Shown: positions 55,521 to 64,000, counted from the first letter of the stretch. The stretch: 64,000 nucleotides of DNA from Escherichia coli (GCF_965641715.1 NZ_OZ282453.1); one strand, 5' to 3'. Notes: generated by a model from the sequence alone, not told the origin. A program made the numbers and translations.

Positions 55521-55781
55521 TTAATTCTGAGGTAAAGGCAAACTCATCTGATTGTTTCCCCTGTGTGAAGCTGGCAGCTCATGCCACGGGATACCTTCTG
55601 ATGAGTGAACGCCGGAGGCGTGTTTCGATGTGAATTTATGGAAAGCTTCCAGTGTTGAGAAGCATACGCCGCATTCCAGATTGTTACACTGGTAATACTT
55701 TTGCCGCACGGTGTTTGAATCATTTTCCGGACGACTGGTGCGGATACGGGCAGATGCGCCACAAAGCGGACAACGGAACAT
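55521..55781 (-). CDS. Ogr/Delta-family zinc-finger late transcription activator-like protein
   Basis: N-terminus MFRCPLCGASARIRTSR...YYQCNNLECGVCF (C2C2 finger); C-terminus diverges from P2 Ogr, may be degenerate. Confidence 0.5.
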   Translation of the reverse strand: MFRCPLCGASARIRTSRPENDSNTVRQKYYQCNNLECGVCFSTLEAFHKFTSKHASGVHSSEGIPWHELPASHRGNNQMSLPLPQN

Positions 55782-55823
55782 AGCGACCTCCCTTAACGTG
55801 GTGCTGCCGCTATTCTAAGTTGC

Positions 55824-56933
55824 TCACTCTGTTTCTGCTATCCATTCCGGGATTTTTGCTTCAAGCTCAAGCTGCGTGGTAAAGCCACTGTTATCAATGG
55901 TGTGCTCGGCTTTCGCAATAATCCAGTCCTGATTATCAATCTCGCTTTTAAATCCTGTTACCGTGCCATGCATTTCGGGGTAGAGTTCTGCTCGTCCACG
56001 TGTCAGCGTGATGGAGAATGATGCGGCTCCGCGTTGTAGTTGTTGCCACTTTGCCGCCGCTGCGCGTCTTGCTGCCTGCTCGTTCTGATAAGTCTTGCGT
56101 AACACAAACACATTGCCTTCCGCGCCTTCCATATAATCACCTTCACGGCTGCTGCTTTTCTCTTTTTTCGGTTTTGGCGGTTTGCGGCGTTTCACGCTGA
56201 CTTTTTTCTTTTTCCCGTAATTAAGATCAAGCCAGTAAGCGCGTACCCCCGTATACGCTTCGCGGTCAGCAATGCGGAACTGATGGCGATCGCCACTGCT
56301 GCGTGTGATGGCGAACGATGGCAACGGCTGGCCCTGTGCGTTCACGCCACCGCCGGGCATGATGAATAACAGATTACCGCTTTTTACCGTGGTGATTGCG
56401 CCCAGCATTTCCGCCATGCGCGTAAGGAAGGACATGTCACTTTCTTCGGTCTGGTCGGCGTGGTCGATTTCGATATCCATCAGCATTTCGCTGATTTGCG
56501 GTTTCAGACCGTACCGATGAGCGATGGCGGATACCACACGCTCAACGGTCACATCATGCCAGGACACCTCACGTTTAACGTTAAATTCATCCCGAAAATC
56601 TGCGCTTCTGGCTGAAACAGTCAGCCTGTCCGGCGGTCCTTCGTGTGCGATTTCATCAACAATGTAAGAGCCTTTTTCTGCCAGCGGTTCGCCTTTCCAG
56701 CCAATGAGAACCGTCAGGCGCGCGCCCCGTGGCGGTAGCTGCAACTGACCATCCGCATCATCCAGCGTGATGGTTAGCTGATCTGCCTCAAATCCCCGGT
56801 TGTCGGTCAGCGACAGGCTCATCAGGCGCTCTGCCACTCCGGACAGCGTTTTACCCTCCGCGAGAATATCAAAATCCGGCATTTTTACGGGGTCTGTGCT
56901 CTGACTGAGCAATTGCATGGTGGTATCGGTCAT
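55824..56933 (-). CDS. P2-like tail protein D (late control gene D)
   Basis: 369 aa from ATG with RBS GGGAGGAAG; gpD-like sequence with lysine-rich linker. Confidence 0.7.
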   Translation of the reverse strand: MTDTTMQLLSQSTDPVKMPDFDILAEGKTLSGVAERLMSLSLTDNRGFEADQLTITLDDADGQLQLPPRGARLTVLIGWKGEPLAEKGSYIVDEIAHEGPPDRLTVSARSADFRDEFNVKREVSWHDVTVERVVSAIAHRYGLKPQISEMLMDIEIDHADQTEESDMSFLTRMAEMLGAITTVKSGNLLFIMPGGGVNAQGQPLPSFAITRSSGDRHQFRIADREAYTGVRAYWLDLNYGKKKKVSVKRRKPPKPKKEKSSSREGDYMEGAEGNVFVLRKTYQNEQAARRAAAAKWQQLQRGAASFSITLTRGRAELYPEMHGTVTGFKSEIDNQDWIIAKAEHTIDNSGFTTQLELEAKIPEWIAETE

Positions 56934-57090
56934 CTGCTTCCTCCCTGTGCGGCATGGTCGCATGTGCGTGTGGAGGGGGTTACTGCTTTTTGTTGTCGCC
57001 GTGGCGGGAGAACGGCGCAGGGGTGAGATTACGCGCGTGGTGGGTGATGATTGTTGCCGAATCATTTAACGGATACAAGGGGCTGAAGCT

Positions 57091-58275
57091 ATGAGTGAAA
57101 CTCGTTTTCATGGTGCCCGTGTTACGGAAAATACCGATCTGGTAACAGCGATTAACGATGTTGATTCCAGCGTTATCGGTATCGTGGCAACGGCGGATGA
57201 TGCGGACGCGAATCTGTTCCCGCTGAACAAGCCCACACTGCTGACCCGCGTCAATGACGTGCTGGGAAAATGCGGGACAACGGGGACGCTTTATCGTGCG
57301 CTTAAGGCCATCGCAGACCAGGTGAGCACAAAGGTGATCGTCGTTCGCGTGGCTGAACACAAAGAAGAAGACGGAAAGACGCAGGATCAACTGGTTATCG
57401 GTGGTTCTGAGGATGACGGCAGCTATACGGGGATGTATGCGCTGCTTGTTGCAGAGCAGGATGAAAGCATCGGATACCGTCCGCGTATTCTGGCCGCGCC
57501 GGAGCTGGACACGGAGGCGGTAACGAAATCCCTGTGCGTGATTGCAGGTAAACTGCGCGCGTTTGTGTATGCCTCATGTCACGGCTGTAACACGATGGCT
57601 GAGGCGATTACCTACCGCCAGAAATTCAACGAACGTGAGGTGATGCTCTTATGGCCGGACTTCATCGCCTACAACCCGAAAAGTGGCAAAAACGAAACGT
57701 TCCCCGCACCTGCCTATGCGTGCGGCCTTCGTGCGTACATTGACCATGAGCAGGGGTGGCACAAATCACTGTCCAACGTTCCGGTTAAAAATGTGCTGGG
57801 GATGTCGAAGCATGTGTTCTGGTCGTTGCAGGCCGAAGACAGCGATGCCAACAGCCTCAACAACAAAGAAATCACGACCATTATTCGTCGCAACGGGTTC
57901 CGCTTCTGGGGCAACCGCACACCGGAAACGAACGCCTACATCTTTGAGGTGTATACCCGAACCGCACAGGTGCTGGCTGATTCAATTGCGGAAGCGCAGT
58001 TTGAAACCATCGACAGTCCACTGACGCCTGCGAACGTGAAGGATGTTATCAGTGCCATCAGGGCAAAACTGGATTCACTGGTTACTGCCGGGAAACTGAT
58101 TGGCGCGGAGTGCTGGTATGACGTGGTGGATAACAGCACCACGGATTTACGTCAGGGGCGCGTGCGTATTCGCTACAAATATACGCCCGTTCCGCCACTG
58201 GAAGACATGGAGCTTTACCAGACGTTTACTGATGAATACTTTGAACCCGCATTTGCGGTGCTGGGAGGTGCCTGA
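57091..58275 (+). CDS. P2-like tail sheath protein FI
   Basis: 394 aa; matches P2 FI as recalled (ADDADANLFPLNKP, WPDF, GFRFWGNRT). Confidence 0.85.
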   Translation: MSETRFHGARVTENTDLVTAINDVDSSVIGIVATADDADANLFPLNKPTLLTRVNDVLGKCGTTGTLYRALKAIADQVSTKVIVVRVAEHKEEDGKTQDQLVIGGSEDDGSYTGMYALLVAEQDESIGYRPRILAAPELDTEAVTKSLCVIAGKLRAFVYASCHGCNTMAEAITYRQKFNEREVMLLWPDFIAYNPKSGKNETFPAPAYACGLRAYIDHEQGWHKSLSNVPVKNVLGMSKHVFWSLQAEDSDANSLNNKEITTIIRRNGFRFWGNRTPETNAYIFEVYTRTAQVLADSIAEAQFETIDSPLTPANVKDVISAIRAKLDSLVTAGKLIGAECWYDVVDNSTTDLRQGRVRIRYKYTPVPPLEDMELYQTFTDEYFEPAFAVLGGA

Positions 58276-62666: not shown

Positions 62667-62701
62667 TTTAACACAAAAACCGCTAATGGTCAGATTAGCG
62701 G

Positions 62702-63289
62702 TTATTTTGTTTTCTGACTCTTCTCTATTGCTCCGCTTGATTCTCCTGCGGGGTGGTAACGATAAATCGTCGATGTACCAATGCCGTAAATTATTGCCAG
62801 TTGTTTTCTGTCGTGACCGTTTTTAATCAGCCTTGCTATTTGCTCATGCTGTTCTTTTGTCAGCTTCGGGCGACGTCCGCCTGTGCGCCCCCGTGCGCGC
62901 GCTGCTGCCAGTCCGGCCAGTGTACGTTCAACAATTAATTCACGTTCCATTTCAGCCAGGGCACCCATCACGTGGAAGAAAAAACGCCCCATTGGAGAAG
63001 ATGTATCTATGCTGTCGGTCAGACTGCGAAAATTAATCCCTCGCTCCCGTAGTTCCCCGACGAGAGAAATCAGATGTTTCATGCTTCGCCCGAGGCGATC
63101 CAGTTTCCAGACAACCAGCGTGTCACCTTTTTGAAGACGCTTTAAAGCGCGTTTTAATCCCGGTCGGTCTGTCTTTGTCCCGCTTAATTTATCTTCAAAT
63201 ATTTGTTCACATCCTGCACAAACAAGAGCGTTTCGTTGCAGGTCTGTATTCTGGTCATTTGTTGATACCCTTACATAGCCAATCAGCAC
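62702..63289 (-). CDS. DNA invertase (serine recombinase, Gin/Pin/Hin/Cin family)
   Basis: 195 aa from GTG; catalytic Ser in YVRVSTNDQ; C-terminal HTH; alternative ATG at 63307. Confidence 0.8.
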   Translation of the reverse strand: MLIGYVRVSTNDQNTDLQRNALVCAGCEQIFEDKLSGTKTDRPGLKRALKRLQKGDTLVVWKLDRLGRSMKHLISLVGELRERGINFRSLTDSIDTSSPMGRFFFHVMGALAEMERELIVERTLAGLAAARARGRTGGRRPKLTKEQHEQIARLIKNGHDRKQLAIIYGIGTSTIYRYHPAGESSGAIEKSQKTK

Positions 63290-63343
63290 GCTGAATCTCC
63301 CGTCCAAAAGCGTAAATCATGCCATGCAGGTCAGAAACGGCCA

Positions 63344-63369
63344 TTATCTAAAACCTCGGTTTACAGGAA
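63344..63369. repeat. gix/hix-type inversion site TTATCTAAAACCTCGGTTTACAGGAA
   Basis: 25/26 match to phage Mu gixL as recalled; AAACC-TC-GGTTT core; 55 bp from invertase start. Confidence 0.7.
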
Positions 63370-64000
63370 ACGGTAAACAGGGCTGGTAACGCCGTGCAAA
63401 AAAATGGCGATACTTTGTCCGGTGGGCTTACTTTTGAAAATGACTCAATCCTTGCCTGGATTCGAAATACTGACTGGGCGAAGATTGGATTTAAAAATGA
63501 TGCCGATGGTGACACTGATTCATACATGTGGTTTGAGACAGGCGACAACGGCAATGAATATTTCAAATGGAGAAGCAAACAAAGCACCACAACAAAAGAC
63601 CTGATGAATCTTAAATGGGATGCTTTGTATGTTCTTGTTAAAGCTCTTTTCAGCAGTGAAGTAAAAATATCGACAGTCAATGCACTGAGGATATTTAATT
63701 CATCTTTTGGTGCCATTTTTCGCCGTTCTGAAGAATGCCTGCATATCATCCCTACACGAGAGAATGAGGGGGAAAATGGTAATATAGGGCCACTACGTCC
63801 CTTTACGCTTAATCTCAGAACTGGCCGCATAACTATGGGGCATGGTCTGGATGTTACAGGAGATATAACAACTAACGCCTGGGTGTATGCAAACAGGTTT
63901 GCTATTAATAGTGGCTCAACCTCATGGATTGATATGCGAAACCAGAATGTCATTTTTGGTAGAAACGCAGTATCAACAAGTTCTGCGCAGGCTTTGTTAA
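63352..64000 (+). CDS. tail fibre variable C-terminal segment, currently promoterless (partial, continues past window)
   Basis: Frame with no start codon opens inside gix (NLGLQETVNRAGNAVQKNGDTLSGGLTFENDSILAWIRNTDW...), typical of an invertible fibre segment. Confidence 0.55.

Follow-up and report, generated by a model that had tools for sequence, protein, structure and literature searches.

Near one end of a 64,000-nucleotide stretch of Escherichia coli DNA (GCF_965641715.1, NZ_OZ282453.1; the whole stretch is referred to here as the window), a cluster of P2-like phage tail genes is arranged in an order unlike that of textbook P2. The genes FI, FII, E/E', T and U lie on one strand, ogr and D lie beside FI on the other strand, and U is followed by a DNA invertase gene and a fibre segment. 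An earlier interpretation, made from the sequence alone (the sequence-only reading), placed the start of the element at 55521 and regarded the arrangement as non-canonical, possibly a remnant, a rearranged prophage or a tail-only particle (tailocin). Does this locus encode a bacteriocin-like particle, is it what is left of a phage, or is it part of an ordinary temperate phage? Our analysis argues strongly for the last of these, and we conclude with high confidence that positions 53534-64000 of the window represent 10.5 kb, at the ogr end, of a prophage that resides in pdxB and belongs to a P88-like temperate myovirus (genus Xuanwuvirus, family Peduoviridae).

Identity of the element

Nucleotide comparison with Xuanwuvirus was confined to the 10.5 kb of the element that lie inside the window. 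The DNA was found to be 96.9% identical to that of phage P88 in one co-linear block of 8,270 bp (window 55115-63381 versus P88 35142-26884). Seven other phage records, including PhiSM, P884B11, 500465-2, 520873, PhiR44_2 and Chuche, matched at 94-97% identity with 85-98% coverage. At the protein level, the eight tail, regulatory and invertase proteins that were compared were 97-100% identical to those of P88 over their full length, and 32-49% identical to those of P2. NCBI taxonomy assigns P88 to the genus Xuanwuvirus of the Peduoviridae. P88 was previously found to be inducible with mitomycin C and to form plaques, with a burst size of approximately 65, and its virions have icosahedral heads of 50-55 nm and contractile tails of about 137-140 nm (PMC5285337). 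Once induced, PhiSM as well as P88 yields complete virions, each with a head and a contractile tail.

The host-proximal end of the element was located by its phage attachment (att) site. Citrobacter rodentium spontaneously releases PhiSM, which can lysogenise E. coli K-12 at pdxB via a 17-bp core, ATCCTTGTTGATGAAAA, that lies 6 bp inside that gene (PMC6456863). An exact match to this core occurred once in the window, at 53534-53550, directly after the GTGAAA that forms the first two codons of pdxB; the prophage-host junction as a whole occupies 53528-53550 on the plus strand. Homology to phage genomes began at 53527-53534, and prophage-free E. coli genomes, in which flk and pdxB are adjacent, aligned with the window only up to 53550. 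The exact core, together with these homology breakpoints, indicates that the window holds one prophage-host junction and that the element extends from 53534 to beyond 64000, rather than beginning at 55521. Insertion near the start of pdxB by way of this core, as exemplified by PhiSM, is a trait of P88-like phages.

The gene order of the element was likewise that of the P88 lineage. In the P88 record (NC_026014), H and tfa are followed by tfa' and H', the invertase gene on the plus strand, U, T, E', E, FII and FI on the minus strand, and then D on the plus strand, an unannotated ogr and hok. The Xuanwuvirus layout, as given by the P88 feature table, thus has ogr-D divergent from FI-U, with U convergent with a serine invertase gene at the fibre segment, and the same layout was found in the window. 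The sequence-only reading held that this arrangement is lacking in P2, which is correct according to the P2 annotation, but it is present in the P88 lineage. The divergent layout of FI-U and D-ogr is the standard one for this lineage and was already known; it is therefore no sign of decay, and the description of the cluster as rearranged or as a remnant is not supported for an order that P88 and its relatives share. A gene order that differs from textbook P2 is no evidence of a remnant or a tailocin.

Integrity of the tail genes

Gene calls were made from a listing of open reading frames (ORFs) together with profile searches (Pfam, phrog), which bore out the intactness of FI, FII, E/E', T and U on the plus strand. 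FI (57091-58275) encodes the tail sheath, with three Pfam sheath domains, and its product was 99.2% identical to that of P88 and 46% identical to that of P2. The tail tube gene FII (58275-58787; Pfam Phage_tube, E 7.5e-47) and the gene for the tail protein gpU (62172-62666; Pfam Phage_P2_GpU, E 1.5e-38) each specify a protein 100% identical to its P88 counterpart, and the 935-amino acid (aa) tape measure protein T (59358-62165; Pfam PhageMin_Tail, E 2e-58) was 97.2% identical to P88 gp45. Downstream of U, a bidirectional intrinsic terminator (62678-62703), with a 10-bp stem and a T-run on each strand, separates this gene from the convergent invertase gene.

The tail assembly chaperone pair, which matches phrog_103 and corresponds to a GpE-family coding sequence annotated in relatives, is encoded on the plus strand by E (58842-59207) and by E and E' together (to 59371). 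A slippery heptamer, T TTT TTG, was found near the end of E at 59153-59159, where the zero frame reads AAT TTT TTG (59151-59159), and the E' frame, at -1, is open to 59371. The annotated frameshift site of P2 has the identical TTTTTTG heptamer, and the C-terminus of the E+E' fusion, ...WRERAALRSGNTDNEDS, aligns with that of P2, ...WREKALRRSGNTNE. Both features of a P2-type chaperone frameshift, the heptamer near the end of E and the GpE-family ORF in the -1 frame, are thus present, which agrees with the conserved frameshift site claimed earlier. The sequence thus shows that E/E' arise by -1 frameshifting on T TTT TTG.

On the minus strand, the ORF listing placed ogr and D opposite to FI, as had been stated. 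The gene ogr (55521-55781) encodes a zinc-finger activator of late genes (Pfam Ogr_Delta, E 5e-14) that was 98.8% identical to the product of an unannotated P88 ORF and 41.5% identical to P2 Ogr. D (55824-56933) encodes the 369-aa baseplate-hub/tail protein gpD (Pfam Phage_GPD; phrog_52, E 1e-164), with 98% identity to P88 gp51, from which it differs by a 3-aa indel, and 49% identity to P2 D. An ORF of 413 aa that reaches 57065 represents an upstream extension of D; the start at 56933 is preceded by a GGAGG ribosome site and corresponds to that of P88 gp51. D was intact in the window and in four relatives.

The RefSeq annotation of three genomes (20425-21534, 39530-40639 and 5795-6904) divides gene D into a 267-aa 'VgrG/Pvc8 family' protein and a pseudo-fragment. 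Because the 369-aa ORF was intact in all of the genomes examined, we regard the 267-aa call as an annotation artefact, and truncation or decay of D was rejected as an explanation for it. Such an artefact could be mistaken for prophage decay.

All of the tail genes were seen intact, and the ORF listing and profile searches confirmed that head genes are absent within the window. These are the observations in favor of an R-type tailocin domesticated from a P2-like phage, in which the tail genes have stayed under selection while genes for the head, replication and integration were lost. However, an intact tail with no head genes in the window is no more than what is expected of 10.5 kb at the tail end of any such prophage. 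The cluster encodes proteins 97-100% identical to those of P88, an infectious phage with a head, and it is situated at the exact att core of PhiSM, a live phage. It has also retained ogr, which in P2 drives the head operons as well, and genes for the head, terminase, replication and integrase were found in all three of the complete relatives examined. A tailocin would be expected to have no phage attachment junction and to occupy a fixed locus under host-type regulators, whereas the window has the PhiSM att core and has kept ogr; neither regulators of the tailocin type nor a lysis cassette beside the tail genes was visible in the window. The proposal of a tail-only particle was thus not borne out, the relatives having the head module and integrase that the sequence-only reading had itself named as evidence against it, and we consider a tailocin extremely improbable at this locus.

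Relatives and completeness of the prophage

In a set of 5,426 complete E. coli genomes, 304 aligned with 80% or more of 53400-64000 at a single, co-linear locus. Three complete relatives, E. coli 401651, RM10740 and O111:H11 88-19539, have a prophage with an identical junction and tail layout between flk and pdxB. Past the fibre segment, these three prophages contain the fibre and baseplate genes H, I, J, W, V, S and R, a lysis module, the head and head-completion genes X, L, M, N and O, and the packaging genes P and Q, and they continue with cargo and ParM, a replication endonuclease, cox, C and a tyrosine integrase, ending at pdxB. The suggestion that the cluster belongs to a prophage with other parts beyond 64 kb was therefore essentially right, in view of the att junction and the full modules of the three relatives; the qualification 'rearranged' was not.

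Several observations weigh against our identification. The completeness of the copy in the window rests on its relatives, and the source sequence was read as far as 64000. The best match to the whole region in a complete genome was 97.2%, and the public contigs that encode an identical T protein were at most 6.4 kb long. RM10740, which was 100% identical over 53300-55600, has a decayed copy, with IS66 in H and with the invertase gene and part of the fibre segment lost; given this difference, RM10740 was rejected as the source of the window.

This decay, together with the presence of IS100 in the region of phages 520873 and 503458 that matches the window, and the end of the sequence read at 64 kb, would also fit a P88-like prophage that is truncated or defective beyond 64 kb in this strain, that is, a cryptic remnant of which the visible part is undecayed. 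Against this explanation, nine genes, the frameshift site, the gix-like crossover site described below, the terminator and the att core are all intact in the window, and the full set of modules is kept in each of the three complete relatives examined. We consider a defective copy unlikely. The flk-pdxB region here most likely contains a temperate phage that is inducible and carries variable cargo as well as a host-range switch, and not a bacteriocin-like weapon.

The invertase and the fibre segment

The gene that faces U (62702-63289, minus strand) encodes a 195-aa serine DNA invertase of the Gin/Cin/Pin type (Pfam Resolvase, E 1.5e-50, and HTH_7, E 1.1e-13; phrog_125 'DNA invertase', E 4e-97). 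Its resolvase domain and C-terminal helix-turn-helix are those of a small serine recombinase. The protein was 99.5% identical to P88 gp43, and at the DNA level its gene matched gin of Mu, D108 and SfMu with 92-95% identity.

The invertible fibre segment is bordered on the side of the invertase by a 26-bp gix-like crossover site, TTATCTAAAACCTCGGTTTACAGGAA (63344-63369, plus strand), situated upstream of the start of the invertase gene. This site is identical to the one beside the P88 invertase gene and is located within a stretch that aligns to the annotated boundary of the Mu G segment. In P88 and E. coli 401651, a second, inverted gix-like copy is found approximately 3.1 kb away, and the two copies bound Hv-tfa / tfa'-Hv'; the window spans one border only.

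Beside the site, a start-less alternative fibre cassette was found (63350-64000, plus strand), an open frame without a start codon that continues past the end of the window. This silent, Sv'-type C-terminal cassette most resembled the Sv' cassette in the C segment of P7, with 97.6% identity. In a between-strain comparison, it also matched, at 92% identity, the variable part of H that is expressed in P88 (window 63340-63996 versus P88 23822-24478). The cassette is silent here and expressed in the P88 record, which implies that the fibre segment has opposite orientations in the two records, as would fit flipping of the segment.

The Resolvase/HTH_7 gene and the start-less cassette substantiate the invertase and fibre segment that had been noticed after U. 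We interpret the invertase gene, the site and the cassette, as judged from their sequences, as a putative Mu/P1-type host-range switch that is carried as a mosaic module. By analogy with the Mu/P1 paradigm, the Gin-type invertase would flip a segment of about 3 kb between inverted 26-bp sites. Such a flip would swap the C-terminal end of the fibre protein H along with its assembly chaperone, and the host range would switch as a result.

Orientation of the FI-U block and late-gene control

In the Salmonella phage Fels-2 (Felsduovirus), the genes run from att on one strand in the order ogr, D, U, T, E', E, FII, FI and invertase, followed by the fibre segment. The sole difference in the window and in P88 is that a 5.6-kb FI-U block is inverted; here U faces the invertase gene and FI faces D. 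Divergent, adjacent D and FI genes were also present in Enterobacter phage phiT5282H, Serratia phage KSP20, Klebsiella phage 3LV2017, the Kp48xx phages, ST16-OXA48phi5.4 and Salmonella phages SEN4 and SEN5, with D identity among these phages as low as 63%. The constancy of the D/FI orientation across several genera indicates that the inversion is old and fixed.

An alternative is that the FI-U block is a second invertible segment, which the Gin-type invertase flips between the orientation seen in P2 and Fels-2 and that seen in P88. The invertase gene is located at one end of the block, and the inversion relative to Fels-2 is a clean one. In addition, a short-read contig with an identical T protein (Logan contig ERR14867472_82, 6426 bp) breaks off exactly at the D/FI spacer on one side and shortly beyond the gix site on the other. 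The break on the right of this contig is consistent with inversion heterogeneity, and the left-hand break, at the D/FI spacer, could reflect a repeat common to another prophage. However, no gix-like site was found at the borders of the block, where the best match had 12 mismatches in 26 positions, equal to the background level across the window, and no inverted repeat was found to flank it. The absence of both indicates that the adjacent invertase does not flip the block today. Furthermore, all high-coverage phage records and the 304 E. coli genomes were co-linear, in one place and on one strand, and the orientation was identical in several genera. Invertase-driven flipping of the block was rejected, and a second invertible segment is hardly credible.

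An old and fixed inversion places the starts of D and FI on either side of a divergent control region of 157 bp (56934-57090). No sigma-70-like promoter was found in this spacer, and the region as a whole scored below the shuffled expectation. The spacer contained no exact copy of the classical P2 element, TGT-N12-ACA, which over the whole window was less frequent than expected by chance. We did identify a candidate Ogr-binding element, TGTTGTCGCCGTGGCGGGAGAAC, at 56991-57013. Its motif, TGTTGT-N12-AGAAC, is a looser substitute for TGT-N12-ACA that was derived post hoc from two sequences; in P88 it occurs in two places only, the divergent P/O (14214-14236) and D/FI (33253-33275) intergenic regions. 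The annotated activator sites of P2 contain TGTTGT or GGTTGTG, and a single P2 site serves the divergent promoters pP and pO.

As inferred from P2 biology, Ogr would activate the late promoters. In this lineage, transcription of the tail-shaft operon, FI, FII, E/E', T and U, normally diverges from that of D-ogr, and the operon ends at the bidirectional terminator that faces the invertase gene. The confinement of the motif to the P/O and D/FI spacers of P88, along with the sharing of one site by pP and pO in P2, raises the possibility that one Ogr site drives both FI and D-ogr, and the single candidate element in the D/FI spacer may serve both divergent units in the manner of pP/pO. Two observations speak against such an arrangement: the post hoc motif was unmatched in the P/O region of E. 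coli 401651, and a mere 69 bp or so separate the center of the site from the point where translation of D begins, which would leave a very short leader. We therefore offer only tentatively, from sequence features, the proposal that in the P88-type clade an old inversion of 5.6 kb split the F operon of the ancestor, and that a single Ogr-binding element at 56991-57013 now activates both of the resulting units, FI and D-ogr. If this is true, ogr would be under its own positive feedback through co-transcription with D, copying the pP/pO design, and the late-gene circuit would be one that is undescribed for P2 or 186.

Prophage cargo and other features of the window

Between the att core and ogr, the prophage carries three predicted genes on the minus strand. 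The first encodes a VasI/TagO-like secreted protein (53697-54590; Pfam VasI, E 2.4e-25) and the second a zinc-ribbon membrane protein (54595-54927; Pfam Zn_Ribbon_1; phrog_6586); both are carried by phages 500465-2, PhiR44_2, PhiSM and P884B11, and P88 is without them. The third (55190-55330) specifies, by translation, a 46-aa toxin of the hok/gef type, in accordance with the Hok/Gef annotation in relatives and of P88 gp52. This toxin gene sits inside the prophage, beside ogr. An Rfam scan of the window at the gathering threshold gave argW as its sole match, with no Sok-type or other RNA in the prophage part. In O111:H11 88-19539, an additional gene with a RES domain is found in the same att-ogr cargo spot. 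The genes from the att core to ogr are variable phage cargo, and the att-hok interval has the look of a slot for variable moron or defence genes.

Near the end of the prophage, immediately beyond the 3' end of the TagO-like gene, a self-inverted match revealed a strong 45-bp palindrome that forms a hairpin with a perfect stem (53626-53670). This hairpin is likely a terminator that insulates the side of the pdxB promoter from transcription of the cargo genes.

Elsewhere in the window, argW, a tRNA-Arg(CCT) gene (24801-24875), is accompanied by a tyrosine integrase gene (23482-24675) and a low-GC stretch in which a gene for tail-fibre assembly is found together with a tail-collar fibre fragment (19289-20391). 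The interval 19289-24875 resembles a small prophage island at argW that has degraded and has no relation to the P88-like element.

Comparison with known systems

P2 and the element have homologous FI, FII, E/E', T, U, D and Ogr proteins, the TTTTTTG heptamer, an ogr gene beside att and late promoters that depend on an activator. In P2, however, a single-strand F operon of FI-FII-E-E'-T-U-D is followed by ogr, whereas D and ogr lie opposite to FI-U in the window. P2 also differs in having no invertase gene, in the presence of fun(Z) before FI and in its integration site. With neither a one-strand F operon nor close protein similarity (32-49%), the element is not a member of P2 proper (Peduovirus). 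Fels-2 is like the window in that its Gin/Cin-type invertase gene adjoins a fibre segment, H'/G', that can invert, and in that ogr-D is adjacent to att.

The fibre switch has its counterparts in the G segment of Mu and the C segment of P1 and P7, with their invertases Gin and Cin. The window resembles these systems in its gin-like invertase DNA, in the position of the 26-bp site and in the Sv' cassette, but here the switch module resides in a P2-type genome.

R-type pyocins and P2-derived tailocins likewise have P2-type sheath, tube, chaperone, tape-measure, U and D proteins. They differ from the cluster in the window, which has an att core and ogr and whose relatives add genes for the head, packaging, replication and integrase.

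The closest likeness is to P88 and its relatives PhiSM, P884B11, 500465-2, PhiR44_2 and Chuche, in which the order and strands of the genes from hok through the fibre segment are identical to those of the window. P88 itself differs from the window in its att-side cargo, which is without the TagO-like and zinc-ribbon genes, and in its fibre segment, which has the opposite orientation.

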